The notes beneath the pieces were generated by a model that made no database searches, was not told the origin of the DNA, and saw only the letters and a program-made list of their open reading frames with translations. Shown here one piece after another: positions 118 through 52,569 of a DNA stretch of 64,000 nt. The translations under genes were made by a program, and so were the position numbers. The DNA lies in assembly GCA_964016885.1 (NCBI GenBank), contig OZ024748.1:44516001-44580000 (forward strand), written 5' to 3'. Within the stretch, counting starts at the first letter, position 1, and every line of letters starts with the position of its first letter. This DNA is from Eledone cirrhosa. Its lineage: Eukaryota.

Positions 118-195
118 CATTTCCTGATAACGGTCAAAGAGATCTTGCATCAAGTTGTAGGCAGCATCACGGGAGACAAACGACCCAAAGACATA
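118..195 (-). CDS. GRAM-domain protein, exon F (last exon visible; gene continues beyond window start)
   Basis: Minus strand reads ttatttatttcag|TATGTC...GAAATG|gtatgt; 78 bp, phase 0-0. Encodes YVFGSFVSRDAAYNLMQDLFDRYQEM, the C-terminal strand and helix of the GRAM/PH fold (cf. Y-x-F-x-S-x-x-S-R-D in GRAMD proteins). Confidence 0.9.
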
Positions 196-9818: not shown

Positions 9819-9914
9819 CTTCTCTGATGCTGTTTGTACCCCGATGGCATTTGGAATGATAAATGCTGTTTTCTCTTTAGTTACACTATGAACATTGTCA
9901 AGAGGGATTTCAAT
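9819..9914 (-). CDS. GRAM-domain protein, exon E
   Basis: catttctttcag|ATTGAA...GAGAAG|gtaaga; 96 bp, phase 0-0. Encodes IEIPLDNVHSVTKEKTAFIIPNAIGVQTASEK, which carries the K-x-KTA-x-x-x-PNAI GRAM signature. Confidence 0.95.
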
Positions 9915-9924
9915 CTGAAAGAAA

Positions 9925-11817: not shown

Positions 11818-11921
11818 ATGCCTGCCACGGCCTCTGATCTTGGAATAGAAACAAAACCAACCAAGAGATATGTATAGGTGACCCTGGAGGAGAATATCTC
11901 CTTGGTATGCACAGGAATAGT
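11818..11921 (-). CDS. GRAM-domain protein, exon D
   Basis: ataatttcag|ACTATTCC...AGGCAT|gtaagt; 104 bp, phase 1-0. Encodes (H)YSCAYQGDILLQGHLYISLGWFCFYSKIRGRGRH, matching the GRAM core (cf. GRAMD1 YSCALQRDILLQGRLYLSENWICFYS, recalled from family knowledge). Confidence 0.97.
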
Positions 11922-18518: not shown

Positions 18519-18615
18519 GATCAATTAGAGACTCCAACCGAGGCACAGATTTGAAGAGTTTGTGGAATTTTGCCACCTTTGACTTACTGACAGTTGGGAC
18601 GTGAAGCAACATTTC
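18519..18615 (-). CDS. GRAM-domain protein, exon C
   Basis: ttttgttttgtgtttcag|GAAATG...ATTGATC|gtaagt; 97 bp, phase 0-1. Encodes EMLLHVPTVSKSKVAKFHKLFKSVPRLESLID, with the FHKLF..VP..E.L start of the GRAM domain. C+AC joins exon D in frame. Confidence 0.95.
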
Positions 18616-21960: not shown

Positions 21961-22000
21961 CCTGCCAGGATATTTTTTCATGCCTGCTATAGGACTGGAA
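21961..22000 (-). CDS. GRAM-domain protein, exon B (40 bp)
   Basis: cttgtctctccttttcag|TTCCAG...GGCAGG|gtaaga; phase 2-0; encodes (C)SSPIAGMKKYPGR. It bridges exon A (ends TG) and exon C (starts phase 0) exactly. Confidence 0.85.
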
Positions 22001-24514: not shown

Positions 24515-24673
24515 CAAGGCTTGCTGATGAGATGTTCATTCTGTGACATTGAGCCTATAACAGATACTGAGCAAGGAACAACCTGTTTCACTTCCTCTGG
24601 ACTGCTGGGAGATGCTGATATCATACATATTCCTTCATCTCTATCAGGTGTGGACGGAGTAGTGATAGGGGCT
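24515..24673 (-). CDS. GRAM-domain protein, exon A (minimal form; 5' boundary uncertain, may extend to 42157)
   Basis: cttccattttcag|AGCCCCT...AAGCCTTG|gtaatg; 159 bp, phase 2-2. Encodes non-repetitive APITTPSTPDRDEGICMISASPSSPEEVKQVVPCSVSVIGSMSQNEHLISKP. TG+T joins exon B in frame. Confidence 0.75.
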
Positions 24674-27600
24674 CTGAAAATGGAAGTAGTAGTAGTAGCA
24701 GTATTAGTAGGGGCTCTGAAAATGGAAGTAGTAGTAGTAGTAGCAGTATTAGTAGGGGCTCTGAAAATGGAAGTAGTAGTAGTAGTAGCAGTATTAGTAG
24801 GGGCTCTGAAAATGGAAGTAGTAGTAGTAGTAGCAGTATTAGTAGGGGCTCTGAAAATGGAAGCAGCAGTAGTAGTATTAGTAATATTAATAGGGCTCTG
24901 AAAATCGTATTAGTATTATTATTAGTAGTAATAGTAACAGTATTAATATGGGCTCTGAAAATAGTAGTAGTAGGAGTTTTGAAAAGAGGAGTACCAATAG
25001 TAGTAGTAGTAGTGGGGGTTTTGAAAAAAGGAGTACCAATAGTAGTAGTAGTAGTGGGGGTTTTGAAAAAAGGAGTACCAATAGTAGTAGTAGTAGTAGT
25101 GGGGGTTTTGAAAAAAGGAGTACCAATAGTAGTAGTAGTAGTGGGGGTTTTGAAAAAAGGAGTACCAATAGTAGTAGTAGTAGTAGTGGGGGTTTTGAAA
25201 AAAGGAGTACCAATAGTAGTAGTAGTAGTAGTAGTAGTGGGGGTTTTGAAAAAAAGAGTACCAATAGTAGTAGTAGTAGTAGTGGGGTTTTTGAAAAAAG
25301 GAGTACCAATAGTAGTAGTAGTAGTAGTAGTGGGGGTTTTGAAAAAAGGAGTACCAATAGTAGTAGTAGTAGTAGTGGGGGTTTTGAAAAAAGGAGTACC
25401 AATAGTAGTAGTAGTAGTAGTGTTGGTTTTGAAAAAAGGAGTACCAATAGTAGTAGTAGTAGTAGTGGGGGTTTTGAAAAAAAGAGTACCAATAGTAGTA
25501 GTAGTAGTAGTGGGGTTTTTGAAAAAAGGAGTACCAATAGTAGTAGTAGTAGTAGTGGGGGTTTTGAAAAAATGAGTATCAATAGTAGTAGTAGTAGTAG
25601 TAGTAGTAGGGGGGTTTTGAAAAAATGAGTACCAATAGTAGTAGTAGTAGTAGTAGTAGGGGGGTTTTGAAAAAAGGAGTACCAATAGTAGTAGTAGTAG
25701 TAGTGGGGGTTTTGAAAAAAGGAGTACCAATAGTAGTAGTAGTAGTAGTGGGGGTTTTGAAAAAATGAGTATCAATAGTAGTAGTAGTAGTAGTAGTAGT
25801 AGTAGGGGGGTTTTGAAAAAATGAGTACCAATAGTAGTAGTAGTAGTAGTAGTAGGGGGGTTTTGAAAAAAGGAGTACCAATAGTAGTAGTAGTAGTAGA
25901 AGTAGGGGGGTTTTGAAAAAAGGAGTACCAATAGTAGTAGTAGTAGTAGTAGTAGTAGGGGGGTTTTGAAAAAATGAGTACCAATAGTAGTAGTAGTAGT
26001 AGTAGAAGTAGGGGGGTTTTGAAAAAAGGAGTACCAATAGTAGTAGTAGTAGTAGTAGTAGTAGGGGGGTTTTGAAAAAATGAGTATCAATAGTAGTAGT
26101 AGTAGTAGGGGGATTTTGAAAAAAGGAGTACCAATAGTAGTAGTAGTAGTAGTAGTACCAAACCTTTCAGTGCAAGGTGTAGTAGTAGTAGTAGTACCAA
26201 ACCTTTCAGTGCAAGGTGTAGTAGTAGTAGTAGTGATAGTACTAAACCTTTCAGTACAAGGTGTAGTAGTAGTAGTAGTACCAAACCTTTCAGTGCAAGG
26301 TGTAGTAGTAGTAGTAGTACCAAACCTTTCAGTGCAAGGTGTAGTAGTAGTAGTAGTGGTAGTACTAAACCTTTCAGTACAAGGTGTAGTAGTAGTAGTA
26401 GTAGTACTAAACCTTTCAGTACAAGGTGTAGTAGTAGTAGTGATAGTAGTAAACCTTTCAGTACAAGGTGTAGTAGTAGTAGTAGTGGTAGTACTAAACC
26501 TTTCAGTACAAGGTGTAGTAGTAGTGATAGTACTAAACCTTTCAGTACAAGGTGTAGTAGTAGTAGTAGTAGTACTAAACCTTTCAGTACAAGGTGTAGT
26601 AGTAGTAGTGGTAGTACTAAACCTTTCAGTACTAGGTGTAGTAGTAGTAGTGGTAGTACTAAACCTTTCAGTACTAGGTGTAGTAGTAGTAGTGGTAGTA
26701 CTAAACCTTTCAGTACAAGGTGTAGTAGTAGTAGTGGTAGTACTAAACCTTTCAGTACAAGGTGTAGTAGTAGTAGTGGTAGTACCAAACGTTTCAGTAC
26801 AAGGTGTAGTAGTAGTAGTGGTAGTACTAAACCTTTCAGTACAAGGTGTAGTAGTAGTAGTGGTAGTACTAAACCTTTCAGTACAAGGTGTAGTAGTAGT
26901 AGTAGTGGTAGTACTAAACCTTTCAGTACAAGGTGTAGTAGTAGTAGTGATAGTACTAAACCTTTCAGTACAAGGTGTAGTAGTAGTAGTAGTACTAAAC
27001 CTTTCAGTACAAGGTGTAGTAGTAGTAGTAGTGGTAGTACTAAACCTTTCAGTACAAGGTGTAGTAGTAGTAGTGATAGTACTAAACCTTTCAGTACAAG
27101 GTGTAGTAGTAGTAGTAGTGGTAGTACTAAACCTTTCAGTACAAGGTGTAGTAGTAGTAGTAGTGGTAGTATTAAACCTGTCAGTACAAGGTGTAGTAGT
27201 AGTAGTAGTACTAAACCTTTCAATACAAGGTGTAGTAGTAATAGTAGTACTAAACCTTTCAGTACAAGGTGTAGTAGTAGTAGTAGTACTAAACCTTTCA
27301 GTACAGGGTGTAGTAGTAGTAGTACTAAACCTTTCAATACAAGGTGTAGTAGTAATAGTAGTACTAAACCTTTCAGTACAAGGTGTAGTAGTAGTAGTAG
27401 TACTAAACCTTTCAGTACAGGGTGTAGTAGTAGTAGTACTAAACTTTTCAGTACAAGGTGTAGTAGTAGTAGTAGTATTAAACTTTTCAGTACAAGGTGT
27501 AGTAGTAGTAGTACTAAACATTTCAGTACAAGGTGTAGTAGTAGTAGTAGTAGTAGTACTAAACTTTTCAGTACAAGGTGTAGTAGTAGTAGTACTAAAC

Positions 27601-30600
27601 ATTTCAGTACAAGGTGTAGTAGTAGTAGTAGTAGTAGTACTAAACTTTTCAGTACAAGGTGTAGTAGTAGTAGTAGTAGTAGTAGTACTAAACATTTCAG
27701 TACAAGGTGTAGTAGTAGTAGTAGTACTAAACTTTTCAGTACAAGGTGTAGTAGTAGTAGTAGGAGTAGTACTAAACCTTTCAGTACAGGGTGTAGTAGT
27801 AGTAGTATTAAACTTTTCAGTACAAGGTGTAGTAGTAGTGGAAGTACTAAACTTTTTAGTACAGGGTGTAGTAGTAGTAGTAGTACTAAACCTTTCAGTA
27901 CAAGGTGTAGTAGTAGTAGTAGTACTAAACTTTTCAGTACAAGGTGTAGTATTAGTAGGAGTAGTACTAAACCTTTCAGTACAGGGTGTAGTAGTAGTGG
28001 TAGTACTAAACCTTTCAGTACAGGGTGTAGTAGTAGTAGTATTAAACTTTTCAGTACAGGGTGTAGTAGTAGTAGTACTAAACTTTTCAGTACAAGGTGT
28101 AGTAGTAGTAGTGGTAGTACTAAACCTTTCAGTACAAGGTGTAGTAGTAGTAGTGGTAGTACTAAACCTTTCAGTACAAGGTGTAGTAGTAGTGGTAGTA
28201 CTAAACCTTTCAGTACAAGGTGTAGTAGTAGTGATAGTTCTAAACCTTTCAGTACAAGGTGTAGTAGTAGTAGTAGTAGTACTAAACCTTTCAGTACAGG
28301 GTGTAGTAGTAGTAGTACTAAACTTTTCAGTACAAGGTGTAGTAGTAGTATTAAACTTTTCAGTACAAGGTGTAGTGGTAGTGGTTGTACTAAACTTTTC
28401 AGTACAAGGTGTAGTGGTAGTGGTAGTGGTAGTACTAAACCTTTCAGTACAGGGTGTAGTAGTAGTAGTAGTAGTAGTACTAAACTTTTCAGTACAAGGT
28501 GTAGTGGTAGTAGTAGTACTAAACTTTTCAGTACAAGGTGTAGTGGTAGTGGTAGTACTAAACCTTTCAGTACAAGGTGTAGTAGTAGTAGTAGTAGTAC
28601 TAAACTTTTCAGTACAAGGTGTAGTGGTAGTAGTAGTACTAAACTTTTCAGTACAAGGTGTAGTGGTAATAGTAGTAGTAGTATTAAACATGTCAGTACA
28701 AGGTGTAGTAGTAGTAGTAGTACTAAACCTTCCAATACAAGGTGTAGTAGTAGTACGAAACCTTTCAAAAAAGGGAAAAGGATCAGTAGAACAGTAAGAA
28801 AAAGGAGTAGTAGGAGGGTGGTAAAAACGCCAATCAGTACAAGTATTAGTTGTATTAGTATTAGTAGTAGTAGTGGGGGTTTTGAAAAAAGGATTAGCAC
28901 TAGTAGTAGTAGTAGTGGGGGTTTTGAAAAAAGGATTACCACTAGTAGTAGTAGTAGTAGTAGTGGGGGTTTTGAAAAAAGGAGTACCACTAGTAGTAGT
29001 ATTGTTTTTGGAAAAAAGAGTAGTATTACCAAACCTTTCAAAAGAGGGTGTAGTAGTAGTACCAAACCTTTCAAAAGAGGGTGTAGTAGTATTACCAAAC
29101 CTTTCAAAAGAGGGTGTAGTAGTATTACCCAACATTTCAAAAGAGGGTGTAGTAGTATTACCAAACATTTCAAAAGAGGGTGTAGTAGTAGTACCAAACC
29201 TTTCAAAAGAGGGTGTAGTAGTAGTACCAAACCTTTCAAAAGAGGGTGTAGTAGTAGTACCAAACCTTTCAAAAGAGGGTGTAGTAGTAGTACCAAACCT
29301 TTCAAAAGGGGGTGTAGTAGTATTACCAAACCTTTCAAAAGAGGGTGTAGTAGTATTACCAAACATTTCAAAAGAGGGTGTAGTAGTATTACCAAACCTT
29401 TCAAAAGAGGGTGTAGTAGTAGTACCAAACCTTTCAAAAGAGGGTGTAGTAGTAGTACCAAACCTTTCAAAAGGGGGTGTAGTAGTAGTACCAAACCTTT
29501 CAAAAGGGGGTGTAGTAGTATTACCAAACATTTCAAAAGAGGGTGTAGTAGTATTACCAAACCTTTCAAAAGAGGGTGTAGTAGTATTACCAAACCTTTC
29601 AAAAGAGGGTGTAGTAGTAGTACCAAACCTTTCAAAAGAGGGTGTAGTAGTAGTACCAAACCTTTCAAAAGAGGGTGTAGTAGTAGTACCAAACCTTTCA
29701 AAAGAGGGTGTAGTAGTAGTACCAAACCTTTCAAAAGAGGGTGTAGTAGTAGTACCAAACCTTTCAAAAGAGGGTGTAGTAGTAGTACCAAACCTTTCAA
29801 AAGAGGGTGTAGTAGTAGTACCAAACCTTTCAAAAGAGGGTGTAGTAGTAGTACCAAACCTTTCAAAAGAGGGTGTAGTAGTAGTACCAAAACTTTCAAA
29901 AGGGGATGTAGTTGTAGTACCAAACCTTTCAAAAGGGGGTGTAGTAGTAGTATTACCAAACCTTTCAAAAGGGGGTGTAGTAGTAGTAGTACCAAACCTT
30001 TCAAAAGGGGGGTGTAGTAGTAGTAGTACCAAACCTTCCAAAAGGGGGTGTAGTAGTAGTAGTAGTACTAAACCTTTCAAAAGGGGGTGTAGTAGTAGTA
30101 GTACCAAACCTTTCAAAAGGGGGTGTAGTAGTAGTAGTACCAAACCTTTCAAAAGGGGGTGTAGTAGTAGTAGTACCAAACCTTTCAAAAGGGGGGTGTA
30201 GTAGTAGTAGTACCAAACCTTTCAAAAGGGGGTGTAGTGGTAGTAGTACTAAACCTTCCAAAAGGGGGTGTAGTAGTAGTAGTACCAAACCTTTCAAAAG
30301 GGGGTGTACTAGTAGTAGTACCAAACCTTTCAAAAGGGGGTGTAGTAGTAGTAGTACTAAACCTTCCAAAAGAGGGTGTAGTACTACCAAACCTTTCAAA
30401 AGACAGTGTAGTAGTAGTAACAAACCTTTCAAAAGAGGGAAAAGGATCAGTAGAACAGTCAAAAAAAGGAGTATTAGGGGGTGAATTGTTAAGAGGAGTA
30501 GTAGGAGGGTGGTAAAAACGATTATCAGTACAATTATTATTATTATTATTAGTAGTAGTAGTGGGGGTTTTCAAAAAAGGAGTACCACTAGAAGTAGTAG

Positions 30601-33600
30601 TGGTAATAGTAGTATTGTTTTTGGAAAAAAGAGTAGTGGTAGTACCAAACCTTTCAGTACAAGGTGTAGTAGTAGTAGTAGTGGTAGTACCAAACCTTTC
30701 AGTACAAGGTGTAGTAGTAGTGGTAGTACCAAACCTTTCAGTACAAGGTGTAGTAGTAGTAGTAGTGGTAGTACTAAACCTTTCAGTACAAGGTGTAGTA
30801 GTAGTAGTAGTGGTAGTACCAAACCTTTCAGTACAAGGTGTAGTAGTAGTAGTAGTGGTAGTACCAAACCTTTCAGTACAAGGTGTAGTAGTAGTAGTAG
30901 TGGTAGTACTAAACCTTTCAATACAAGGTGTAGTAGTAATAGTAGTACTAAACCTTTCAGTACAGGGTGTAGTAGTAGTAGTAGTATTAAACTTTTCAGT
31001 ACAAGGTGTAGTAGTAGTAGGACTAAACATTTCAGTACAAGGTGTAGTAGTAGTAGTAGTAGTAGTACTAAACTTTTCAGTACAAGGTGTAGTAGTAGTA
31101 GTAGTACTAAACATTTCAGTACAAGGTGTAGTAGTAGTAGTACTAAACATTTCAGTACAAGGTGTAGTAGTAGTAGTAGTATTAAACTTTTCAGTACAAG
31201 GTGTAGTAGTAGTAGTACTAAACATTTCAGTACAAGGTGTAGTAGTAGTAGTAGTAGTAGTACTAAACTTTTCAGTACAAGGTGTAGTAGTAGTAGTACT
31301 AAACATTTCAGTACAAGGTGTAGTAGTAGTAGTACTAAACATTTCAGTACAAGGTGTAGTAGTAGTAGTAGTATTAAACTTTTCAGTACAAGGTGTAGTA
31401 GTAGTAGTACTAAACATTTCAGTACAAGGTGTAGTAGTAGTAGTACTAAACATTTCAGTACAAGGTGTAGTAGTAGTAGTAGTATTAAACTTTTCAGTAC
31501 AAGGTGTAGTAGTAGTAGTACTAAACATTTCAGTACAAGGTGTAGTAGTAGTAGTAGTAGTAGTACTAAACTTTTCAGTACAAGGTGTAGTAGTAGTAGT
31601 ACTAAACATTTCAGTACAAGGTGTAGTAGTAGTAGTACTAAACATTTCAGTACAAGGTGTAGTAGTAGTAGTACTAAACATTTCAGTACAAGGTGTAGTA
31701 GTAGTAGTAGTAGTAGTACTAAACTTTTCAGTACAAGGTGTAGTAGTAGTAGTACTAAACATTTCAGTACAAGGTGTAGTAGTAGTAGTAGTAGTAGTAC
31801 TAAACATTTCAGTACAAGGTGTAGTAGTAGTAGTACTAAACATTTCAGTACAAGGTGTAGTAGTAGTAGTAGTAGTAGTACTAAACTTTTCAGTACAAGG
31901 TGTAGTAGTAGTAGTACTAAACATTTCAGTACAAGGTGTAGTAGTAGTAGTACTAAACATTTCAGTACAAGGTGTAGTAGTAGTAGTACTAAACATTTCA
32001 GTACAAGGTGTAGTAGTAGTAGTACTAAACATTTCAGTACAAGGTGTAGTAGTAGTAGTACTAAACATTTCAGTACAAGGTGTAGTAGTAGTAGTAGTAG
32101 TAGTACTAAACTTTTCAGTACAAGGTGTAGTAGTAGTAGTACTAAACATTTCAGTACAAGGTGTAGTAGTAGTAGTAGTAGTAGTACTAAACATTTCAGT
32201 ACAAGGTGTAGTAGTAGTAGTACTAAACATTTCAGGACAAGGTGTAGTAGTAGTAGTAGTAGTAGTACTAAACTTTTCAGTACAAGGTGTAGTAGTAGTA
32301 GTACTAAACATTTCAGTACAAGGTGTAGTAGTAGTAGTACTAAACATTTCAGTACAAGGTGTAGTAGTAGTAGTACTAAACATTTCAGTACAAGGTGTAG
32401 TAGTAGTAGTAGTATTAAACTTTTCAGTACAAGGTGTAGTAGTAGTAGTACTAAACATTTCAGTACAAGGTGTAGTAGTAGTAGTAGTAGTAGTACTAAA
32501 CTTTTCAGTACAAGGTGTAGTAGTAGTAGTACTAAACATTTCAGTACAAGGTGTAGTAGTAGTAGTACTAAACATTTCAGTACAAGGTGTAGTAGTAGTA
32601 GTAGTATTAAACTTTTCAGTACAAGGTGTAGTAGTAGTAGTACTAAACATTTCAGTACAAGGTGTAGTAGTAGTAGTACTAAACATTTCAGTACAAGGTG
32701 TAGTAGTAGTAGTAGTATTAAACTTTTCAGTACAAGGTGTAGTAGTAGTAGTACTAAACATTTCAGTACAAGGTGTAGTAGTAGTAGTAGTAGTAGTACT
32801 AAACTTTTCAGTACAAGGTGTAGTAGTAGTAGTACTAAACATTTCAGTACAAGGTGTAGTAGTAGTAGTACTAAACATTTCAGTACAAGGTGTAGTAGTA
32901 GTAGTAGTAGTAGTACTAAACTTTTCAGTACAAGGTGTAGTAGTAGTAGTACTAAACATTTCAGTACAAGGTGTAGTAGTAGTAGTAGTACTAAACTTTT
33001 CAGTACAGGGTGTAGTAGTAGTAGTATTAAACTTTTCAGTACAAGGTGTAGTAGTAGTAGTAGGAGTAGTACTAAACCTTTCAGTACAGGGTGTAGTAGT
33101 AGTAGTATTAAACTTTTCAGTACAAGGTGTAGTAGTAGTGGAAGTACTAAACTTTTTAGTACAGGGTGTAGTAGTAGTAGTACTAAACATTTCAGTACAA
33201 GGTGTAGTAGTAGTAGTAGTAGTAGTACTAAACCTTTCAGTACAAGGTGTAGTAGTAGTAGTAGTACTAAACTTTTCAGTACAAGGTGTAGTATTAGTAG
33301 GAGTAGTACTAAACCTTTCAGTACAGGGTGTAGTAGTAGTGGTAGTACTAAACCTTTCAGTACAGGGTGTAGTAGTAGTAGTATTAAACTTTTCAGTACA
33401 GGGTGTAGTAGTAGTAGTACTAAACTTTTCAGTACAAGGTGTAGTAGTAGTAGTGGTAGTACTAAACCTTTCAGTACAAGGTGTAGTAGTAGTAGTGGTA
33501 GTACTAAACCTTTCAGTACAAGGTGTAGTAGTAGTGGTAGTACTAAACCTTTCAGTACAAGGTGTAGTAGTAGTGATAGTTCTAAACCTTTCAGTACAAG

Positions 33601-36600
33601 GTGTAGTAGTAGTAGTAGTAGTACTAAAGCTTTCAGTACAGGGTGTAGTAGTAGTAGTACTAAACCTTTCAGTACAGGGTGTAGTAGTAGTAGTACTAAA
33701 CTTTTCAGTACAAGGTGTAGTAGTAGTATTAAACTTTTCAGTACAAGGTGTAGTGGTAGTGGTTGTACTAAACTTTTCAGTACAAGGTGTAGTGGTAGTG
33801 GTAGTACTAAACCTTTCAGTACAGGGTGTAGTAGTAGTAGTAGTAGTAGTAGTAGTACTAAACTTTTCAGTACAAGGTGTAGTGGTAGTAGTAGTACTAA
33901 ACTTTTCAGTACAAGGTGTAGTGGTAGTGGTAGTACTAAACCTTTCAGTACAAGGTGTAGTAGTAGTAGTAATAGTACTAAACTTTTCAGTACAAGGTGT
34001 AGTGGTAGTAGTAGTACTAAACTTTTCAGTACAAGGTGTAGTGGTAATAGTAGTAGTAGTATTAAACATGTCAGTACAAGGTGTAGTAGTAGTAGTAGTA
34101 CTAAACCTTCCAATACAAGGTGTAGTAGTAGTACGAAACCTTTCAAAAAAGGGAAAAGGATCAGTAGAACAGTAAGAAAAAGGAGTAGTAGGAGGGTGGT
34201 AAAAACGCCAATCAGTACAAGTATTAGTTGTATTAGTATTAGTAGTAGTAGTAGTGGGGGTTTTGAAAAAAGGATTACTACTAGTAGTAGTAGTAGTGGG
34301 GGTTTTGAAAAAAGGAGTACCACTAGTAGTAGTATTGTTTTTGGAAAAAAGGGTAGTATTACGAAACCTTTTAAAAGAGGGAAAAGGATCAGTAGAACAG
34401 TAAGAAAAAGGAGTAGTAGGAGGGTGGTAAAAACGCCAATCAGTACAAGTATTAGTTGTATTAGTATTAGTAGTAGTAGTGGGGGTTTTGAAAAAAGGAT
34501 TACCACTAGTAGTAGTAGTAGTAGTAGTGGGGGTTTTGAAAAAAGGAGTACCACTAGTAGTAGTATTGTTTTTGGAAAAAAGAGTAGTATTACCAAACCT
34601 TTCAAAAGAGGGTGTAGTAGTAGTACCAAACCTTTCAAAAGAGGGTGTAGTAGTAGTACCAAACCTTTCAAAAGAGGGTGTAGTAGTAGTACCAAATGTT
34701 TCAAAAGAGGGTGTAGTAGTATTACCAAACCTTTCAAAAGAGGGTGTAGTAGTAGTACCAAACCTTTCAAAAGAGGGTGTAGTAGTAGTACCAAACCTTT
34801 CAAAAGAGGGTGTAGTAGTATTACCAAACCTTTCAAAAGAGGGTGTAGTAGTAGTACCAAACCTTTCAAAAGAGGTTGTAGTAGTAGTACCAAACCTTTC
34901 AAAAGAGGGTGTAGTAGTATTACCAAACCTTTCAAAAGAGGGTGTAGTAGTATTACCAAACCTTTCAAAAGAGGGTGTAGTAGTAGTACCAAACCTTTCA
35001 AAAGAGGGTGTAGTAGTAGTACCAAATGTTTCAAAAGAGGGTGTAGTAGTATTACCAAACCTTTCAAAAGAGGGTGTAGTAGTAGTACCAAACCTTTCAA
35101 AAGAGGGTGTAGTAGTAGTACCAAACCTTTCAAAAGAGGGTGTAGTAGTATTACCAAACCTTTCAAAAGAGGGTGTAGTAGTAGTACCAAACCTTTCAAA
35201 AGAGGTTGTAGTAGTAGTACCAAACCTTTCAAAAGAGGGTGTAGTAGTAGTACCAAACCTTTCAAAAGAGGGTGTAGTAGTATTACCAAACCTTTCAAAA
35301 GAGGGTGTAGTAGTAGTACCAAACCTTTCAAAAGAGGTTGTAGTAGTAGTACCAAACCTTTCAAAAGAGGGTGTAGTAGTAGTACCAAACCTTTCAAAAG
35401 AGGGTGTAGTAGTATTACCAAACCTTTCAAAAGAGGGTGTAGTAGTATTACCAAACCTTTCAAAAGAGGGTGTAGTAGTATTACCAAACGTTTTAAAAGA
35501 GGGTGTAGTAGTAGTACCAAACCTTTCAAAAGGGGGTGTAGTAGTAGTATTACCAAACCTTTCAAAAGGGGGTGTAGTAGTAGTAGTAGTACTAAACCTT
35601 TCAAAAGGGGGTGTAGTAGTAGTAGTACCAAACCTTTCAAAAGAGGGTGTAGTAGTAGTACCAAACCTTTCAAAAGAGGGTGTAGTAGTAGTACCAAACC
35701 TTTCAAAAGAGGGTGTAGTAGTAGTACCAAAACTTTCAAAAGGGGATGTAGTTGTAGTACCAAACCTTTCAAAAGGGGGTGTAGTAGTAGTAGTACCAAA
35801 CCTTTCAAAAGGGGGTGTAGTAGTATTACCAAACCTTTCAAAAGGGGGTGTAGTAGTATTACCAAACCTTTCAAAAGGGGGTGTAGTAGTAGTAGTAGTA
35901 CCAAACCTTTCAAAAGGGGGTGTAGTAGTATTACCAAACCTTTCAAAAGGGGGTGTAGTAGTAGTAGTAGTACCAAACCTTTCAAAAGGGGGTGTAGTAG
36001 TATTACCAAACCTTTCAAAAGGGGGTGTAGTAGTAGTAGTAGTACCAAACCTTTCAAAAGGGGGTGTAGTAGTATTACCAAACCTTTCAAAAGGGGGTGT
36101 AGTAGTAGTAGTAGTACTAAACCTTTCAAAAGGGGGTGTAGTAGTAGTAGTACCAAACCTTTCAAAAGAGGGTGTAGTAGTAGTACCAAACCTTCCAAAA
36201 GGGGGTGTAGTAGTAGTAGTAGTACCAAACCTTTCAAAAGGGGGTGTAGTAGTAGTAGTACCAAACCTTCCAAAAGGGGGTGTAGTAGTAGTAGTACCAA
36301 ACCTTCCAAAAGGGGGTGTAGTAGTAGTAGTAGTACCAAACCTTCCAAAAGGGGGTGTAGTAGTAGTAGTAGTACCAAACCTTTCAAAAGGGGGTGTAGT
36401 AGTAGTAGTACCAAACCTTTCAAAAGGGGGTGTAGTGGTAGTAGTACCAAACCTTTCAAAAGGGGGTGTAGTAGTAGTAGTACCAAACCTTTCAAAAGGG
36501 GGTGTAGTGGTAGTAGTACCAAACCTTTCAAAAGGGGGTGTAGTAGTAGTAGTAGTACCAAACCTTCCAAAAGGGGGTGTAGTAGTAGTAGTAGTACCAA

Positions 36601-38458
36601 ACCTTTCAAAAGGGGGTGTAGTAGTAGTAGTACCAAACCTTTCAAAAGGGGGTGTAGTGGTAGTAGTACCAAACCTTTCAAAAGGGGGTGTAGTAGTAGT
36701 AGTAGTACCAAACCTTCCAAAAGGGGGTGTAGTAGTAGTAGTAGTACCAAACCTTTCAGAAGGGGGTGTAGTAGTAGTAGTACCAAACCTTTCAAAAGGG
36801 GGTGTAGTGGTAGTAGTACCAAACCTTTCAAAAGGGGGTGTAGTAGTAGTAGTACCAAACCTTTCAAAAGGGGGTGTAGTAGTAGTAGTACCAAACCTTT
36901 CAAAAGGGGGGTGTAGTAGTAGTAGTACCAAACCTTTCAAAAGGGGGTGTAGTGGTAGTAGTACCAAACCTTTCAGAAGGGGGTGTAGTAGTAGTAGTAC
37001 CAAACCTTTCAAAAGGGGGTGTAGTAGTAGTAGTACCAAACCTTTCAAAAGGGGGGTGTAGTAGTAGTAGTACCAAAACTTTCAAAAGGGGGTGTAGTAG
37101 TAGTAGTACCAAACCTTTCAAAAGGGGGTGTACTAGTAGTAGTACCAAAACTTTCAAAAGGGGGTGTAGTAGTAGTAGTACTAAACCTTCCAAAGGAGGG
37201 TGTAGTAGTACCAAACCTTTCAAAAGACAGTGTAGTAGTAGTAACAAACCTTTCAAAAGAGGGAAAAGGATCAGTAGAACAGTCAAAAAAAGGAGTATTA
37301 GGGGGTGAATTGTTAAGAGGAGTAGTAGGAGGGTGGTAAAAACGATTATCAGTACAATTATTATTATTATTATTAGTAGTAGTAGTGGGGGTTTTCAAAA
37401 AAGGAGTACCACTAGAAGTAGTAGTGGTAATAGTAGTATTGTTTTTGGAAAAAAGAGTAGTGGTAGTACCAAACCTTTCAGTACAAGGTGTAGTAGTAGT
37501 AGTAGTGGTAGTACCAAACCTTTCAGTACAAGGTGTAGTAGTAGTAGTAGTGGTAGTACCAAACCTTTCAGTACAAGGTGTAGTAGTAGTAGTAGTGGTA
37601 GTACCAAACCTTTCAGTACAAGGTGTAGTAGTAGTAGTGGTGGTAGTACCAAACCTTTCAGTACAAGGTGTAGTAGTAGTAGTAGTGGTAGTACCAAACC
37701 TTTCAGTACAAGGTGTAGTAGTAGTAGTGGTGGTAGTACCAAACCTTTCAGTACAAGGTGTAGTAGTAGTAGTAGTGGTAGTACTAAACCTTTCAGTACA
37801 AGGTGTAGTAGTAGTAGTGGTGGTAGTACCAAACCTTTCAGTACAAGGTGTAGTAGTAGTAGTAGTGGTAGTACCAAACCTTTCAGTACAAGGTGTAGTA
37901 GTAGTAGTGGTGGTAGTACCAAACCTTTCAGTACAAGGTGTAGTAGTAGTAGTAGTGGTAGTACTAAACCTTTCAGTACAAGGTGTAGTAGTAGTAGTGG
38001 TGGTAGTACCAAACCTTTCAGTACAAGGTGTAGTAGTAGTAGTAGTGGTAGTACCAAACCTTTCAGTACAAGGTGTAGTAGTAGTAGTAGTGGTAGTACC
38101 AAACCTTTCAGTACAAGGTGTAGTAGTAGTAGTAGTGGTAGTACTAAACCTTTCAGTACAAGGTGTAGTAGTAGTAGTAGTACTAAACCTTTCACTACAG
38201 GGTGTAGTAGTAGTAGTACTAAACTTTTCAGTACAAGGTGTAGTAGTAGTAGTAGTATTAAACTTTTCAGTACAAGGTGTAGTAGTAGTAGTAGTATTAA
38301 ACTTTTCAGTACAAGGTGTAGTAGTAGTAGTAGTATTAAACTTTTCAGTACAAGGTGTAGTGGTAGTAGTAGTAGTAGTAGTAGTAGTAGTATTAAACTT
38401 TTCAGTACAAGGTGTAGTAGTAGTAGTAGTATTAAACTTTTCAGTACAAGGTGTAGTG

Positions 38459-38491
<33 letters not shown>

Positions 38492-41400
38492 TTAAACTTT
38501 TCAGTACAAGGTGTAGTAGTAGTAGTAGTACTAAACATTTCAGTACAAGGTGTAGTAGTAGTAGTAGTAGTAGTAGTAGTACTAAACTTTTCAGTACAAG
38601 GTGTAGTAGTAGTAGTACTAAACATTTCAGTACAAGGTGTAGTAGTAATAGTAGTACTAAACTTTTCAGTACAAGGTGTAGTAGTAGTAGTGGTACTAAA
38701 CTTTTCAGTACAAGGTGTAGTAGTAGTAAGAGTAGTACTAAACCTTTCAGTACAGGGTGTAGTAGTAGTAGTATTAAACTTTTCAGTACAAGGTGTAGTG
38801 GAAGTACTAAACTTTTTAGTACAGGGTGTAGTAGTAGTAGTAGTACTAAACCTTTCAGTACAAGGTGTAGTAGTAGTAGTAGTACTAAACTTTTCAGTAC
38901 AAGGTGTAGTATTAGTAGGAGTAGTACTAAACCTTTCAGTACAGGGTGTAGTAGTAGTGGTAGTACTAAACCTTTCAGTACAGGGTGTAGTAGTAGTAGT
39001 ATTAAACTTTTCAGTACAGGGTGTAGTAGTAGCAGTACTAAACTTTTCAGTACAAGGTGTAGTAGTAGTAGTGGTAGTACTAAACCTTTCAGTACAAGGT
39101 GTAGTAGTAGTAGTGGTAGTACTAAACCTTTCAGTACAAGGTGTAGTAGTAGTGGTAGTACTAAACCTTTCAGTACAAGGTGTAGTAGTAGTGATAGTAC
39201 TAAACCTTTCAGTACAGGGTCTAGTAGTAATAGTACTAAACCTTTCAGTACAAGGTGTAGTAGTAGTGGTAGTACTAAACCTTTCAGTACAAGGTGTAGT
39301 AGTAGTAGTAGTACTAAAGCTTTCAGTACAGGGTGTAGTAGTAGTAGTACTAAACCTTTCAGTACAGGGTGTAGTAGTAGTAGTACTAAACTTTTCAGTA
39401 CAAGGTGTAGTAGTAGTATTAAACTTTTCAGTACAAGGTGTAGTGGTAGTGGTTGTACTAAACTTTTCAGTACAAGGTGTAGTGGTAGTGGTAGTACTAA
39501 ACCTTTCAGTACAGGGTGTAGTAGTAGTAGTAGTAGTAGTACTAAACTTTTCAGTACAAGGTGTAGTGGTAGTAGTAGTACTAAACTTTTCAGTACAAGG
39601 TGTAGTGGTAATAGTAGTAGTAGTATTAAACCTGTCAGTACAAGGTGTAGTAGTAGTAGTAGTACTAAACCTTCCAATACAAGGTGTAGTAGTAGTACGA
39701 AACCTTTCAAAAGAGGGAAATGGATCAGTAGAATAGTAAGAAAAAGGAGTAGTAGGAGGGTGGTAAAAACGCCAATCAGTACAAGTATTAGTTGTATTAG
39801 TATTAGTAGTAGTAGTGGGGGTTTTGAAAAAAGGAGTACCACTAGTAGTAGTAGTAGTGGGGGTTTTGAAAAAAGGAGTACCACTAGTAGTAGTATTGTT
39901 TTTGGAAAAAAGAGTAGTATTACGAAACCTTTTAAAAGAGGGAAAAGGATCAGTAGAACAGTAAGAAAAAGGAGTAGTAGGAGGGTGGTAAAAACGCCAA
40001 TCAGTACAAGTATTAGTTGTATTAGTATTAGTAGTAGTAGTGGGGGTTTTGAAAAAAGGATTACCACTAGTAGTAGTAGTAGTAGTAGTGGGGATTTTGA
40101 AAAAAGGAGTACCACTAGTAGTAGTATTGTTTTTGGAAAAAAGAGTAGTATTACCAAACCTTTCAAAAGAGGGTGTAGTAGTATTACCCAACATTTCAAA
40201 AGAGGGTGTAGTAGTAGTACCAAACCTTTCAAAAGAGGGTGTAGTAGTATTACCAAACCTTTCAAAAGAGGGTGTAGTAGTATTACCCAACCTTTCAAAA
40301 GAGGGTGTAGTAGTATTACCAAACCTTTCAAAAGAGGGTGTAGTAGTATTACCAAACCTTTCAAAAGAGGGTGTAGTAGTATTACCCAACATTTCAAAAG
40401 AGGGTGTAGTAGTAGTACCAAACCTTTCAAAAGAGGGTGTAGTAGTATTACCCAACATTTCAAAAGAGGGTGTAGTAGTAGTACCAAACCTTTCAAAAGA
40501 GGGTGTAGTAGTATTACCCAACATTTCAAAAGAGGGTGTAGTAGTAGTACCAAACCTTTCAAAAGAGGGTGTAGTAGTATTACCAAACCTTTCAAAAGAG
40601 GGTGTAGTAGTATTACCAAACCTTTCAAAAGAGGGTGTAGTAGTATTACCCAACCTTTCAAAAGAGGGTGTAGTAGTATTACCCAACATTTCAAAAGAGG
40701 GTGTAGTAGTAGTACCAAACCTTTCAAAAGAGGGTGTAGTAGTATTACCCAACATTTCAAAAGAGGGTGTAGTAGTAGTACCAAACCTTTCAAAAGAGGG
40801 TGTAGTAGTATTACCAAACCTTTCAAAAGAGGGTGTAGTAGTATTACCAAACCTTTCAAAAGAGGGTGTAGTAGTATTACCCAACCTTTCAAAAGAGGGT
40901 GTAGTAGTATTACCCAACATTTCAAAAGAGGGTGTAGTAGTAGTACCAAACCTTTCAAAAGAGGGTGTAGTAGTATTACCAAACCTTTCAAAAGAGGGTG
41001 TAGTAGTATTACCAAACCTTTCAAAAGAGGGTGTAGTAGTATTACCCAACATTTCAAAAGAGGGTGTAGTAGTAGTACCAAACCTTTCAAAAGAGGGTGT
41101 AGTAGTATTACCCAACATTTCAAAAGAGGGTGTAGTAGTAGTACCAAACCTTTCAAAAGAGGGTGTAGTAGTATTACCAAACCTTTCAAAAGAGGGTGTA
41201 GTAGTATTACCAAACCTTTCAAAAGAGGGTGTAGTAGTATTACCCAATATTTCAAAAGAGGGTGTAGTAGTATTACCCAACATTTTAAAAGAGGGTGTAG
41301 TAGTATTACCCAATATTTCAAAAGAGGGTGTAGTAGTATTACCCAACATTTCAAAAGAGGGTGTAGTAGTATTACCCAATATTTCAAAAGAGGGTGTAGT

Positions 41401-42097
41401 AGTATTACCCAACATTTCAAAAGAGGGTGTAGTAGTATTACCAAACCTTTCAAAAGAGGGTGTAGTAGTATTACCAAACCTTTCAAAAGAGGGTGTAGTA
41501 GTATTACCAAACCTTTCAAAAGAGGGTGTAGTAGTATTACCCAACATTTCAAAAGAGGGTGTAGTAGTAGTACCAAACCTTTCAAAAGAGGGAAAAGGAT
41601 CAGTAGAACAGTAAGAAAAAGGAGTATTAGGGAGAGATTTGTTAAGAGGAGTAGTAGGAGGGTGGTAAAATCGATTATCAGTACAATTATTATTTATACT
41701 AGTAGTAGTAGGGGTAGTAGCAGTAGTAGTGGGGGTTTTGAAAAAAGGAGTACCACTAGTAGTAGAAGTAGTAGTAGTGGGGGATGTTTTGAAAAAAGGA
41801 GTACCACTAGCAGTAGTAGTAGTATGCTTGTAAAGGGAGGAAAAAGAAGTAGGAAGAGGAGTAGTAGAAAGGGGAGTAGTAGGAAGAGGATAGTTGAAAA
41901 GAGAAGTAGTAGGAGGAGGAGGGGGGCGGTAAACACGAAAATCTGTACAAGTATTAGTATTAGTGGTAGTAGTAGTGGGGGATTTCAAAAAAGGAGTACC
42001 AATAGTAGTATTAGTAGTAGTAGGGGTTTTGAAAAATGAACTAGCAGTAGTAGTAGTGGTGGTGGTAGCAGCAGCAGTAGTAGTAGTAGTAGTAGTG

Positions 42098-42142
<45 letters not shown>

Positions 42143-42157
42143 CTAGTGGTAGGGGCT
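24674..42157 (-). repeat. 17.5-kb (ACT)n-based compound repeat array; Thr-rich frame gives PSFERFG(T)n, PCTERFS(T)n and GTPFFKTP(T)n units; candidate giant exon
   Basis: The Thr frame is open over 42157-37048, ~36900-30188 and most of 30005-24893. Frame breaks occur only at G runs. The array begins at a polypyrimidine/CAG acceptor (42158-42190). The repeat is certain; coding status is uncertain. Confidence 0.9.
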
Positions 42158-42371
42158 CTGAAAATTAATTTAAAAAAATACAAAAAAAAACGATAATGAA
42201 TAAACATGAAAATGTAAATAGATGAATATAAATATTCATTTATTTACATGTTGTTGTTGTTGTTGTTGTTGTTTAGAGCCCTGATTGATCAGACCTAGGG
42301 TTAAAATATGTCCCAACTGTTGATCATAGTAAGTACTGTCTCTATGTTTTATATTTTATTATCAAACAGAA

Positions 42372-44982: not shown

Positions 44983-46409
44983 ATATTAAAATCTACCAGG
45001 AGTCCTAGAGGCTGAAGGTTGTTTTTTTTTTGTTTCTTTCAAGTTTCTGGTTGTCAAAATTAGGGTGCATCCTCGAGGACGAAGTGTCTTCAGCGCCGGG
45101 AAATATGGTAATAATAATAATAATGAAATTATTGCGTACAGTGCTCAGGGGCACTACAACTATGGTAAAATTGAGGTCAAATTGACCTGTCGGCTCGAAG
45201 ACCATCACAACCTCTCCAACCAATGTCAGCTTGGAAATGAGACTCTCAGAGGAGATGATGAAGGATACAGCGAGGGGAGAGATGCTGTGCTGAAAAGGAC
45301 ACATCCAACCCATGCAAGCGTGGAAAAAACAGACGTAAAAACGATGATGATGATAACATTTGAATTGGGATGCCGTCAGATGAGATTTTGGTTTTGCCTG
45401 ATTAACAAAACTGATGAGTGGAATCGGGTTGGAGTCAGGTCTATGACACTAATAGGGACCCTGAGCCATCCACCTGTGAAACATATGTAACTACGTATAA
45501 TCAATAAAGACCTTAACGAGAGACCTTACTTTGTTTTTAATATACATATATACTTAAATATATATATATATATACTTATATATATATATACTTATATATA
45601 CTTTGTAATATACTTGTTATTTTACATTGAGTTGTTCTCATACTTGAAATTAGATAATATTTAATATTACCCACATGTTATATATATATATATATACGCA
45701 TATATACTTAAATATATACGTACATATATATATATACTTAAATATATACGTACATATATATATATACTTAAATATATACGTACATATATACTTAAATATA
45801 TACATATATATATATATACTTAAATATATACATACATATATATATACTTAAATATATACATACATATATATATATACTTAAATATATACATACATATATA
45901 TATATACTTAAATATATACATACATATATATATATATATACTTAAATGCATACATATATATATATATACTTAAATACATACATATATATATACTTAAATA
46001 CATACATATATATATATACTTAAATATACACACATATATATATACTTAAATATACACATATATATACTTAAATATATATATATATATACTTAAATATATA
46101 TATATATATATACTTAATATATATACTTGAATATATACATACATATATATATATGTATGTGTATAAATATATACACACACATGAACACAAGCACAGAGAG
46201 AGATACATCACACACACTGATATATAAATACACACTCCACACACACACACACACACAGACACACACACACACCGTACTGTTATCTTCTACTTCATTTCCT
46301 TACTGTGAGAATCCTAACAAGTCTATGAGATAAGACTGGAAATCTCCACAGGAATGGTTAATGTCACTCAAGATGGCGGTGGAGTTCTATGGATGTTCCA
46401 TGTTCCTTT

Positions 46410-47210
46410 GGTGGTGGCGGTGATGGTGATGGTGATGGTGGTGTGGTGGATGCAGTGGTGGCGATAGTGGTGGTGGCGGCGGTGATGGCGGTGGTGGTGA
46501 TGGCGGTGATGGTGATGGTGATGGTGGTGTGGTGGATGCAGTGGTGGCGATAGTGGTGGTGGCGGCGGTGATGGCGGTGGTGGTGATGGCGGTGATGGTG
46601 ATGGTGACGGTGGTGTGGTGGATGCAGTGGTGGCGATAGTGGTGGTGGCGGTGATGGTGGTGGTGGTGATGGTGGTGGTGGCGGTGATGGTGATGGTGAT
46701 GGTGGTGGTGGTGTGGTGGATGCAGTGGTGGCGATAGTGGTGGCGGTGATGGCGGTGGTGGTGATGGTGGTGGTGTTGTTGATGATGGTGGTGGTGGTGT
46801 GGTGGTAGCAGTGGTGGCGATAGTGGTGGTGGCGGTGATGGCGGTGGTGGTGATGGTGGTGGTGTTGTTGATGATGGTGGTGGTGGTGGTGGTGATGTGG
46901 TGGCGATAGTGGTGGTGGCGGTGATGGTGGTGGTGTTGTTGATGATGGTGGTGGTGGTGGTGTGGTGGTGGTGGTGTGGTGGTAGTGGTAGTAGTGGTAG
47001 TGTTGTTGATGATGGTGGTGGTGTTGGCGGTGGTGGTGGCGGTGATGATGATGGTGGTGGTGGTGTGGTGGTGGTAGTGTTATTGATGATGATGGTGGTG
47101 GTGGTGTGGTAATGGTGGTGTGGTGGTGGTGGTAGTGTTGTTGATGATGATGGTGGTGGTGGTGTGGTGGTGGTGGTGAGGTGGTGTGGTGGTGGTGGTG
47201 GTGGTGGTGG
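46410..47210. repeat. (GGT/GAT)n compound microsatellite
   Basis: ggtggtggcggtgatggtgat... with longer-period internal duplication. Confidence 0.9.
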
Positions 47211-50245: not shown

Positions 50246-50811
50246 GTTCTCTTTAAACCAGTGTTTACATTACTCAATATTTACTATTGTATTTTCTCAG
50301 TACAGGCTTTACCTCACATTACATTTACATTACTCTATATATACTATTGTATTTTCTCAGTACAGGCTTTACCTCACATAACATTTACATTACTCTATAT
50401 ATACTATTGTATTTTCACAGTAAAGGCTTTACCTCACATAATATCTCACATAACATTTACATTACTCTATATATACTATTGTATTGTCACAGTAAGGGCT
50501 TTACCTCACATAATATCTCATATAACATTTACATTACTCTATATATACTATTGTATTTTCACAGTAAGGGCTTTACCTCACATAATATCTCACATAACAT
50601 CTCGTATACGAGAGACGTGTGTTGACGTGTGTGAACAAGCTCGGCTACCGAGTCGGATTTACTTACTCAAAAAGTGAGTTTTGATTAATTTTTTTATACT
50701 GTAATATACGTTAACCCCTTGCCTTGGTCGTCAAACTTTGAGTTTATTTATTTTCGCCCCTTTTTGGGGCGAATTTTCCAGTTAAAAATTTATTACGGCA
50801 AACTAATAGAA

Positions 50812-52548
50812 ATGGACGGAATTTTCACATCTCATCCTAACGTGAAAGCCACGCCCCCTAAGAAAGGTGATACAGAGAAGCTAGAAGCACAAGGCTCTAA
50901 GTCTTCCCTCCTCACTTCTGCAAAAGAAACATGGAACACGGAATTAAAAGAAAAATTTGTAGAAATGGGTGAAAACCCAGAAAGTCACATAAACGCAGAC
51001 AAAAACATCAACGACAATAACAGCAATAGTCACAACACCAACCAAGGAAAAAATAACGATAACACCAAACAAAGTGAACCCACTACTGGTACCTCCTTTG
51101 CACAGGCGGTCCGGAAAACACAAACCTGCAAGCAACTGGACATTACAACTCTGAGAGAAAAGATGAAGGAAGCGAAACAGTATGTAACTTTCAAAGAAGG
51201 AGGAGACTTCACAATCACCTCCCCACAAGAAATCAAAAGAGACACGACGCTAAGAACGATATCTTTCAGAACAATTTCCAACATAACAAGGAAACCAACT
51301 CAATTATCCCAAAAAGAGATTGAGCTGGTCCTAAAAAATGTGTGGAGTGATATATCGTTCATACAAAAAGGGCCACTCTATGGGAATATAACGGTCCTAA
51401 TGAAGGATCAATTGACGGCCAGGAAATACTCTGTGGCACCAATTGTTTCCAAGATATATACATTTTTCCCCACATATTTAGGGAAAAGAACGCAGAAGAT
51501 AAGGGTCTCCGGAATCCGGCCAAATGCATGCATTTCCTGGGTACTAACAGGATTTTTAGAAGACGAGGACGGAATCCTCTCAGTAGGAGAAGTCACCACA
51601 GACGTTTTCGGCGGTTTGAGCGTGGAGGTTCTGGTCCAAATGAGACCAGAACGAATCGCTAGAATACCACAGAGGGTGTCCCTCGATGGAGAAACATTTA
51701 TATATATTTCAGCCGAGGGTAGGAGGCCCATATGTTACTACTGTTCAAGCAGGGGTCATCTAAGGGCTGCTTGTCCTCAATTGACAAAAAAAAAGGCTCT
51801 TTTGCCTACACCCCACACACCACCACCGCCACCACCACCACCACCTCCACCACCACCACCACAACAACAACAAAAACAACAGGGAAAAATAACACAAGAC
51901 ACGGCCCCACCCAAAACAACTCCCAAAACACACACAAATACAACAAAACCCCAAAATACACCACTACCCGACAGCACGGACGAGGACCCAGCGGAAACGG
52001 CACCTAGTGACGAAGAGGGGGAACCCTTCCAACCTGTAAAAAGGAAAAAAAGAAAGCACCACTCGAACATAAACGAAACAAACACACAACCACCAACAAA
52101 AACAAAACAAACAGAACAAACAAAATCCGCCCCACCCCAAAACATAACACATACAACAAAACGTAAGCACACACAAGAACAACAAACAAACACAACACAA
52201 ATAAAACAGTATACATACATTAACACAAATAACAAAGAACTAGTAAAAACAATACACAAAGACCCTTTGGTGGAAACTGAAGGGCAATTCTTTGCAAGCG
52301 CGGCCAACAAACCGCATTTAAAAATGATAAGACTCCCAATGGACACCTATGCAAAACTAAGAGAGAACTTTCCTGAGGACGTGGGGAAAACATGTACTCG
52401 ACCCTATAACCGCGTCCTCTTGAAACGTTTCCCCACCCACACCTCACCAAACACCCCCACTCCACCACAGAACAACACCCCACCAAACAACCCCTCCAAT
52501 ACGCCCATGGATATTGTGCAACCTGCTCCTCAGGAGCCGAACAGGTAG
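50812..52548 (+). CDS. Tx1-like ORF1p (578 aa from first ATG): CCHC zinc knuckle, Pro/Thr/Lys-rich tail
   Basis: SFAQAVR motif, CYYCSSRGHLRAAC (CX2CX4HX4C), poly-Pro, and basic FQPVKRKKRK. Confidence 0.9.
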   Translation: MDGIFTSHPNVKATPPKKGDTEKLEAQGSKSSLLTSAKETWNTELKEKFVEMGENPESHINADKNINDNNSNSHNTNQGKNNDNTKQSEPTTGTSFAQAVRKTQTCKQLDITTLREKMKEAKQYVTFKEGGDFTITSPQEIKRDTTLRTISFRTISNITRKPTQLSQKEIELVLKNVWSDISFIQKGPLYGNITVLMKDQLTARKYSVAPIVSKIYTFFPTYLGKRTQKIRVSGIRPNACISWVLTGFLEDEDGILSVGEVTTDVFGGLSVEVLVQMRPERIARIPQRVSLDGETFIYISAEGRRPICYYCSSRGHLRAACPQLTKKKALLPTPHTPPPPPPPPPPPPPPQQQQKQQGKITQDTAPPKTTPKTHTNTTKPQNTPLPDSTDEDPAETAPSDEEGEPFQPVKRKKRKHHSNINETNTQPPTKTKQTEQTKSAPPQNITHTTKRKHTQEQQTNTTQIKQYTYINTNNKELVKTIHKDPLVETEGQFFASAANKPHLKMIRLPMDTYAKLRENFPEDVGKTCTRPYNRVLLKRFPTHTSPNTPTPPQNNTPPNNPSNTPMDIVQPAPQEPNR

Positions 52549-52569
52549 GTCCTTCCTCTTTTAACCAAC

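Follow-up and report, generated by a model that had tools for sequence, protein, structure and literature searches.

A 17.5-kb threonine-codon array at an exon start of a GRAMD2B-like gene in Eledone cirrhosa: a probable exon-start expansion that is now likely spliced out

The stretch of DNA analyzed here, called the window in the following, comprises 64,000 nucleotides of contig OZ024748.1 (G000:C8:44516001-44580000) from the 3.0-Gb genome of Eledone cirrhosa. Its minus strand carries part of a gene that, judged by sequence and domain content, is an octopod GRAMD2B-like gene, and directly upstream of one of its exons, exon A, lies an array of about 17.5 kb with a long threonine frame. The original prediction had combined the array and exon A into one giant translated exon. 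The array is a locus-specific compound minisatellite that originated from repeats of the acceptor of exon A and its first threonine codons. It is probably an expansion of the exon start that is now intronic and likely spliced out. Five acceptor copies are in frame (exon starts 24850 to 24673), and splicing is predicted to use one of them, which would likely yield a near-normal GRAMD2B-like tether with 0 to 59 additional residues. A giant exon appears disfavoured by the nearer in-frame acceptors, the internal donor-like sites, the array-free orthologues and the unit variants, which show no visible amino-acid constraint.

Six GT-AG exons, A to F, form one continuous frame on the minus strand of the window (a slash marks the splice site in all motifs):

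24515..24673, minus strand: exon A, ancestral 159-nt form (APITTPSTPD...KP), donor TTG/GTAATG, 88% identity to Octopus bimaculoides
21961..22000, minus strand: exon B
18519..18615, minus strand: exon C, in which GRAM begins
11818..11921, minus strand: exon D, hit to Pfam GRAM (PF02893) at E 2.6e-6, passing the cut-off
9819..9914, minus strand: exon E, GRAM
118..195, minus strand: exon F

Exon A as the query led to a single cluster, the Octopus GRAMD2B-like proteins, at 88% identity, and exons C to F matched the Octopus orthologue. In well-bounded matches, exon A and the downstream exons were open and about 83 to 93% identical to the orthologue. Seven more exon matches, reaching the stop codon, were located just left of the window, and all 499 residues of the orthologue mapped to exons here, including the hydrophobic MVLAICAA/MIFLLVSAVTL toward the C-terminus. 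PF02893 is the only domain of the orthologue, which has no VASt domain. These data confirmed the earlier proposal that unique sequence in exon A is in frame with exons B to F, which encode GRAM. A second GRAM-domain gene was present at G000:C1 168748343-168757704 (plus strand), with 38 to 47% identity to the query.

Human GRAMD2 proteins are composed of an N-terminus that lacks structure, a GRAM domain plus an anchor in the endoplasmic reticulum (ER), with no VASt domain; the ER-plasma-membrane tethers GRAMD2A and GRAMD2B resemble the octopod protein in the short unstructured N-terminus, the GRAM domain, the missing VASt domain and the C-terminal hydrophobic segment (PMC5823543). ER-plasma-membrane localization and binding of phosphatidylinositol phosphates (PIPs) were demonstrated for human GRAMD2a only (PMC5823543). 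The N-termini of GRAMD2 precede a cytosolic GRAM domain (PMC5823543), which supports the earlier assignment of sequence upstream of GRAM to the cytosol.

The orthologue cluster contained 11 members, the named proteins of O. bimaculoides, O. sinensis and O. vulgaris plus one Logan protein. None of the 11 carries the array, which occupies the exon start in this genome only. In 10 members, the first-exon peptide is joined directly to AP(T/I)..TPSTPD, and the eleventh starts later. Several alternative first exons exist in the orthologues, all spliced to the same second exon, and the same arrangement is seen in the Octopus GRAMD2B-like proteins XP_052829797.1 and XP_029647135.1. The orthologous exon A has 159 nt with 52 full codons, a form reproduced here by acceptor 24673. 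The comparison with the orthologous exon speaks against the giant exon.

A phase-2 exon upstream of the array, which had been missing from the original prediction, was found in three forms, all phase 2, located 7.7, 123 and 199 kb past the window end and spread over about 190 kb. These alternative upstream exons of the GRAMD2B-like gene have the following contig coordinates:

G000:C8 ~44587734-44587765
G000:C8 ~44703385-44703430
G000:C8 ~44779129-44779232

The phase match of an exon start at 42157 with the upstream sequence is supported by these exons. They are equally compatible with 42157 and with the five downstream acceptor copies (24850-24673). They do not favour 42157, because the motif TTTCAG/AGCCC occurs eight times and these five copies share the same phase. 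When the MQPG first exon was joined to 24673 or 24850 and to exons B to F, the frame was stop-free into GRAM; when joined to 42157, it ended at a stop after 1,714 residues, and with 24897 or 24954 it was out of frame. The nearest first exon encodes just 10 residues. The fourth first-exon type of O. vulgaris (MENLSII...) was not found within 200 kb. The intron that separates the first exons MQPG and MSVF contains a scaffold gap of 200 N at G000:C8 44615028. An argument that APTT at 42157 represents the ancestral start was dropped, as the Logan protein P0011 in the cluster also has API.

Upstream of exon A, the following elements were distinguished:

24674..42157, minus strand: compound minisatellite of about 17.5 kb at one locus, (ACT)n runs and 18-78-nt spacers, about three higher-order copies
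42158..42280, minus strand: distal acceptor (AG at 42159-42158) with a T-rich tract and 121 AG-free nt, abutting unique DNA of the intron
41579..42157, minus strand: least repetitive 579 nt of the array, predicted in-frame phase 2-2 cassette if the AAG/GTTTGG donor at 41579 (T at +3) is used
24955..26140, minus strand: GTPFFKTP units, which equal the acceptor unit apart from AA in place of AG (TTTTCAAAACCCC versus TTTTCAGAGCCCC)
24851..24960, minus strand: two acceptor copies whose exon starts, 24954 and 24897, are out of frame, plus the final frame break at ~24893
24673..24895, minus strand: five in-frame acceptor copies in 42-45-nt units, exon starts 24850, 24805, 24760, 24715 and 24673

The acceptor ...aattaattttcag/AGCCCCT with its AG at 42159-42158 was confirmed and is probably the original intron end. 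Between it and exon A, the ACT runs are separated by 107 distinct spacers arranged as an ordered gradient. Alignments of spacers between the higher-order copies had one mismatch over 261 bases and eight over 551, and the copies should therefore be young; they differ from each other in unit number and variants. GTPFFKTP units recur near 42040-41730 and at every higher-order junction. The units are arranged head to tail in tandem (Tandem Repeats Finder), and exact matches were confined to the array locus, 97 of 97 for one unit and 4 of 4 for the acceptor unit. A dispersed satellite or transposon as the origin was rejected: the strong matches were all at the locus, and the others, at ~70%, were generic ACT tracts.

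All five acceptors at the 3' end (38 to 43 nt AG-free, 75% pyrimidine, CTAAT at -28 to -34) look like ordinary acceptors of this gene, and their competence is predicted from these features; for the genuine acceptors of exons D and E, the AG-free stretches measure 45 and 23 nt and the pyrimidine content is 55% and 70%. They are positioned 159 to 336 nt from the donor of exon A, which is flanked by an upstream intron of at least 29.6 kb and a downstream intron of 2.5 kb. In human minigenes, exons between long introns were efficiently included only when shorter than about 500 nt, and the nearest splice sites across an exon were favoured (PMC9225289).

The array itself contains 62 TKG/GTAAT donor-like sites, near-copies of TTG/GTAATG that are out of frame, the first of them 617 nt from 42157, and 149 in-frame AAG/GTTTG sites, the first at 579 nt. 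A short cassette exon between acceptor 42158, one of these internal donors and the downstream acceptors is unlikely as the main product, although it may coexist as a minor isoform. With AAG/GTTTGG at 41579, the segment 42157-41579 would add 193 in-frame Thr/Pro-rich codons: its 579 nt are 0 mod 3 and read into GRAM, it is the least repetitive part of the array, and use of the nearest donor would agree with the preference for cross-exon proximity (PMC9225289). With TGG/GTAATA at 41541, the frame would be shifted, which would result in a poison exon. On the other side, AAG/GTTTG has a T at +3, where all 14 genuine donors of the gene (five of them read by eye from tblastn flanks) have a purine, and 579 to 617 nt exceed the range of about 500 nt for exon definition. 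The translation of the 5' end of the array had no related protein among 8,000 longer and 7,498 similar-length candidates (up to 2,000 residues), which is weak evidence.

For the favoured origin by exon-start expansion, the following history is proposed. A short segment spanning the end of the intron and GCC CCT ACC ACT would have been duplicated in tandem. The ACT codons may then have expanded through slippage, followed by amplification. The early growth probably occurred under continued use of the distal acceptor, which would explain frame-keeping spacers. Once the exon had outgrown exon definition, the copies nearest to the donor would have taken over, and the array would thereafter have turned over neutrally and gathered frameshifts. 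Descent from a duplicated exon start would account for the Thr frame being in register with exon A. The layout of the array is repeated in the same gene by a 42-bp minisatellite at 9913-10546 (minus strand), the last copy of which holds the acceptor of exon E together with the first two exon bases (CAG/AT) and is the one used, to judge from the orthologous protein; the 14 copies before the last carry AAG or TAG instead of CAG.

The frame starting at 42157 stops at 37045-37047, as had been stated. In total, 14 shifts interrupt the Thr frame, four of +1, nine of -1 and a last one of -1, and it contains no stop codon of its own. Apart from the last break, they are found at these positions:

36900..37060, minus strand: first +1 pair (~37051 and ~36906), C6 for C5, with the stop TGA at 37047-37045
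30000..30200, minus strand: second +1 pair (~30191 and ~30007), aligning with the first pair across higher-order copies
25600..26116, minus strand: nine units with one shared -1 variant, net 0 mod 3, one stop-free frame

The sites listed originally were recovered, but their number was 14 instead of about six, nine of them within 26110-25600. Every break is at a C run of the gene strand, which upheld their placement at homopolymers, except that the run at 24893 comprises only 3 bases and the nine represent one unit variant in 7 plus 2 copies, to be read as C6-T or equally well as loss of the A from an ACT. The span 42157-24515 has indeed 17,643 nt and is 0 mod 3. However, the breaks sum to -6, so that this divisibility and the "5881 codons" are a coincidence and not evidence for a frame.

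The explanation of the breaks as classic long-read errors was not supported. An alignment of two higher-order copies, in which unit-sized gaps were permitted, brought the two C6 sites at the start of one copy into register with those of the other over 431 aligned bases with 6 mismatches, and the clustering of the +1 breaks had a P of 0.006-0.013. A general homopolymer error is unlikely because 121 of 121 protocadherin matches, counted genome-wide as first-domain matches (150 of 255 candidates scored), were in open frames of 727 to 1000 codons; the open reading frames (ORFs) of a long interspersed nuclear element (LINE) at 50689-56007 were also intact. The breaks look real and inherited as far as these sequence-level tests can indicate. 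Large protocadherin clusters were seen at G000:C2 ~237.7-241.7, 251.6-253.6 and 331.7-339.6 Mb and at G000:C7 2.0-8.7 Mb.

If the breaks are real, acceptor 42158 combined with the donor of exon A could produce a giant isoform that stops after 1,714 residues and is either unproductive or translated into a truncated Thr-rich protein without GRAM or membrane anchor. This would match what the assembled sequence encodes and the inherited appearance of the breaks. It is nevertheless very unlikely: the objections concerning exon size are the same as for the giant exon, and the conserved, open state of exon A and the downstream exons means that productive splicing must dominate.

Another candidate explanation is an artefact: the assembly could have over-expanded the repeat or mixed its haplotypes, and most of the array would then be spurious. 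The near-identity of the higher-order copies would agree with this, and the contigs assembled from reads showed only the 3' end of the array. On the other hand, the ordered gradient of spacers and the differences between copies in unit number and variants argue against an artefact, and exact matches to exon A and to part of the 45-bp units occur in contigs of the runs X1-X3, with a depth of about 2 to 3.5 times that of a single copy. This leaves the artefact highly improbable. X1-X3 represent one sample, possibly that of the assembly itself, and behave as DNA, with one contig passing the donor of exon A unspliced; X4 had no depth on the unique part of exon A. None of the long contigs of X1-X3 covered 24850-24960, and these runs have no bearing on the break at 24893. 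RNA runs containing exon A and its 45-bp units were not present among the run holders listed.

An open Thr frame was no more than expected by chance for (ACT)n DNA. In 23 unrelated (ACT)n tracts, there were 0 stops in 4,320 codons, and 17 of the 23 had no shift; these tracts came from 19 of 20 fetched loci and had been found by their likeness to the array, so that they are biased toward being in phase. Shifts occurred at 1.6 per kb in these tracts and at 0.8 in the array. The frequency of T in the third codon position was likewise set aside as a sign of coding: it was 78% in the control tracts and 53% in the array. Degenerate (ACC)n tracts at 58406-59741 and 46409-47210 (minus strand) of the same intron have open frames of at least 445 and about 300 codons, another sign that Thr/Pro frames are cheap here. 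When the unit variants were placed on minimum spanning trees, leaving aside 8 multi-base changes, 58 were non-synonymous, 14 synonymous and 0 stop, with omega between 1.2 and 1.6; a P of 0.18-0.40 was obtained for the zero stops. The unit variants thus reveal no visible amino-acid constraint.

Several results weigh against an array that is simply intronic, and most of them also speak for the giant exon. Among the eight copies, none is stronger than acceptor 42158 (70% T, 121 nt AG-free), its phase matches that of all three upstream exons, and the internal GTPFFKTP copies have lost their AG. Competing human 3' sites lean upstream overall, and long introns merely reduce this lean (PMC9225289). 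Acceptor use was judged from sequence features here, and the splicing itself is only predicted. The shifts of the nine -1 units add up to 0 mod 3, with an open frame across them, which slightly favours coding. Broken C/G runs numbered 13 of 95 in the array and 0 of 26 in controls (runs of at least 5, 17 in 20 fetched protocadherin matches plus 9 in two LINE ORFs), a difference with a P of 0.068 only, and errors confined to the array, or a read correction that copied between near-identical copies, may play a part. Coding repeats may also show omega near 1.

Two further results of this kind concern the frame of the units. Complex spacers were in phase in 341 of 354 cases in the array, which descend from 3 to 4 founding families, whereas the control, 676 kb of DNA chosen irrespective of likeness to the array, had 17 of 54 families in phase, or 2 of 11 among the repeated ones. 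The P for this excess was roughly 0.01-0.03 by hand, uncorrected for the selection of the array by its open frame. Frame-breaking events in the unit cores amounted to 3 to 4 per 64 substitutions, whereas 11.1 (all non-3n) or 6.3 (1-nt) were expected from 31 neighbouring arrays (P 0.005-0.25); this count omits two self-cancelling 4-nt gaps, which are alignment artefacts, and with them it would be 6 (P 0.07-0.56). Both the phase excess and the deficit of frame breaks are weakened because the array was picked for its open frame. In our reading, they would fit founders that kept the frame, followed by neutral turnover, as expected for an expansion that began inside the exon.

The giant exon itself would be a lineage-specific exon of 17.6 kb (42157-24515) generated from a duplicated acceptor and (ACT)n slippage. 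It would be translated into a disordered, Thr/Phe/Pro-rich cytosolic arm of about 5,900 residues, 46% of them threonine, with spaced Phe and Thr-Pro, before GRAM on an ER-plasma-membrane tether, toggled by acceptors 17.5 kb apart, with at least five of the breaks being errors or the allele being null. Long internal exons often encode disorder and contain tandem repeats (PMC9825244, PMC12457776). A piecewise reading of the Thr frame, in which the unit and spacer translations given originally were reproduced, has 5,754 residues, of which 45.6% are T, 10.8% F and 9.5% P, and includes 426 TP and 164 FG; FSTTTTTTPCTER is an example of a peptide to be expected if the array is translated. This reading is improbable, and the proposal of one translated exon of 17.6 kb was not supported. 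It would require at least five errors (four +1 and the -1 at 24893) in 12 kb in an assembly with all 121 protocadherin matches open; the four +1 sites pair across higher-order copies, omega is not below 1.2, all orthologues are array-free, and the spliceosome would need to ignore five nearer in-frame acceptors and 62 donor-like sites.

The conceptual product resembles, in composition only, the repeats of mucins rich in proline, threonine and serine (PTS) and of FG-nucleoporins; its position would be cytosolic. A lead in the ESM Atlas to PF13634 (FG-nucleoporin) scored 0.79, below its own threshold of 0.9, and recognition was low (838). A spacer variant at ~37290-37270 and 30465-30445 (minus strand) translates as PFFDCSTD, which we take to resemble an FFAT motif; this matters only if the array is translated.

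The exon-start expansion can be compared with known processes. In intron gain or intronization by tandem duplication (PMC3265369, PMC2891723), a splice signal is duplicated and the DNA between the copies can become spliced out, as predicted here. In contrast, the unit here contains an acceptor only (CAG/AGCCC; AG/AG, no GT): a proto-splice site, AG followed by GT or GC, is absent from the acceptor unit, and AAG/GTTTG is held by other units. The prediction is therefore a 17.5-kb extension of an existing intron and no new intron, its size being due to (ACT)n and to higher-order amplification. The elongation of exons through repeats (PMC9825244, PMC12457776) is similar in that growth proceeded from the first codons of a disorder-coding internal exon with founders that were multiples of three; it differs from the array, which has 14 breaks as assembled, can be bypassed by downstream acceptors and is unconserved. 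Octopod intronic minisatellites, represented by the 31 control arrays and the 42-bp array at exon E, are likewise head-to-tail and locus-specific, with omega near 1 and homopolymer length variants. Tandem repeats make up 43% of the surrounding 264 kb, in which the Thr array is the largest (others have 9.2, 7.5 and 6.5 kb), and it differs from these minisatellites in being compound, with higher-order copies and phase-keeping spacers. Searches of open-access full text, supplements excluded, found no paper on GRAMD2 in cephalopods, on giant exons with splicing and exon definition, or on large internal exons with disorder and splicing.

Elsewhere in the window, the LINE-like element at 50689-56007 (plus strand) has two adjacent open frames of 619 and 1152 codons, is located within a 72-bp minisatellite family and is apparently young; its second frame opens with an endonuclease-like sequence, as judged by eye. 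The region at ~2900-8000 harbours a pair of LINE remnants that point in opposite directions; they look reverse-transcriptase-like by eye and are open over stretches of 326 to 368 codons.

Should the giant exon be true after all, a disordered domain of several thousand residues would have arisen de novo on a conserved tether in one lineage. As (ACT)n DNA yields long Thr frames cheaply, such cases call for caution. On the favoured reading as an expansion that is now intronic, the locus would be a clear, young case of an exon start that repeated its own acceptor until the expansion left the exon, and would illustrate one route by which minisatellites swell octopod introns. With eight competing copies of one acceptor, it would also provide a natural test of exon definition. 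The second acceptor-spanning array in the same gene suggests that this route may recur.

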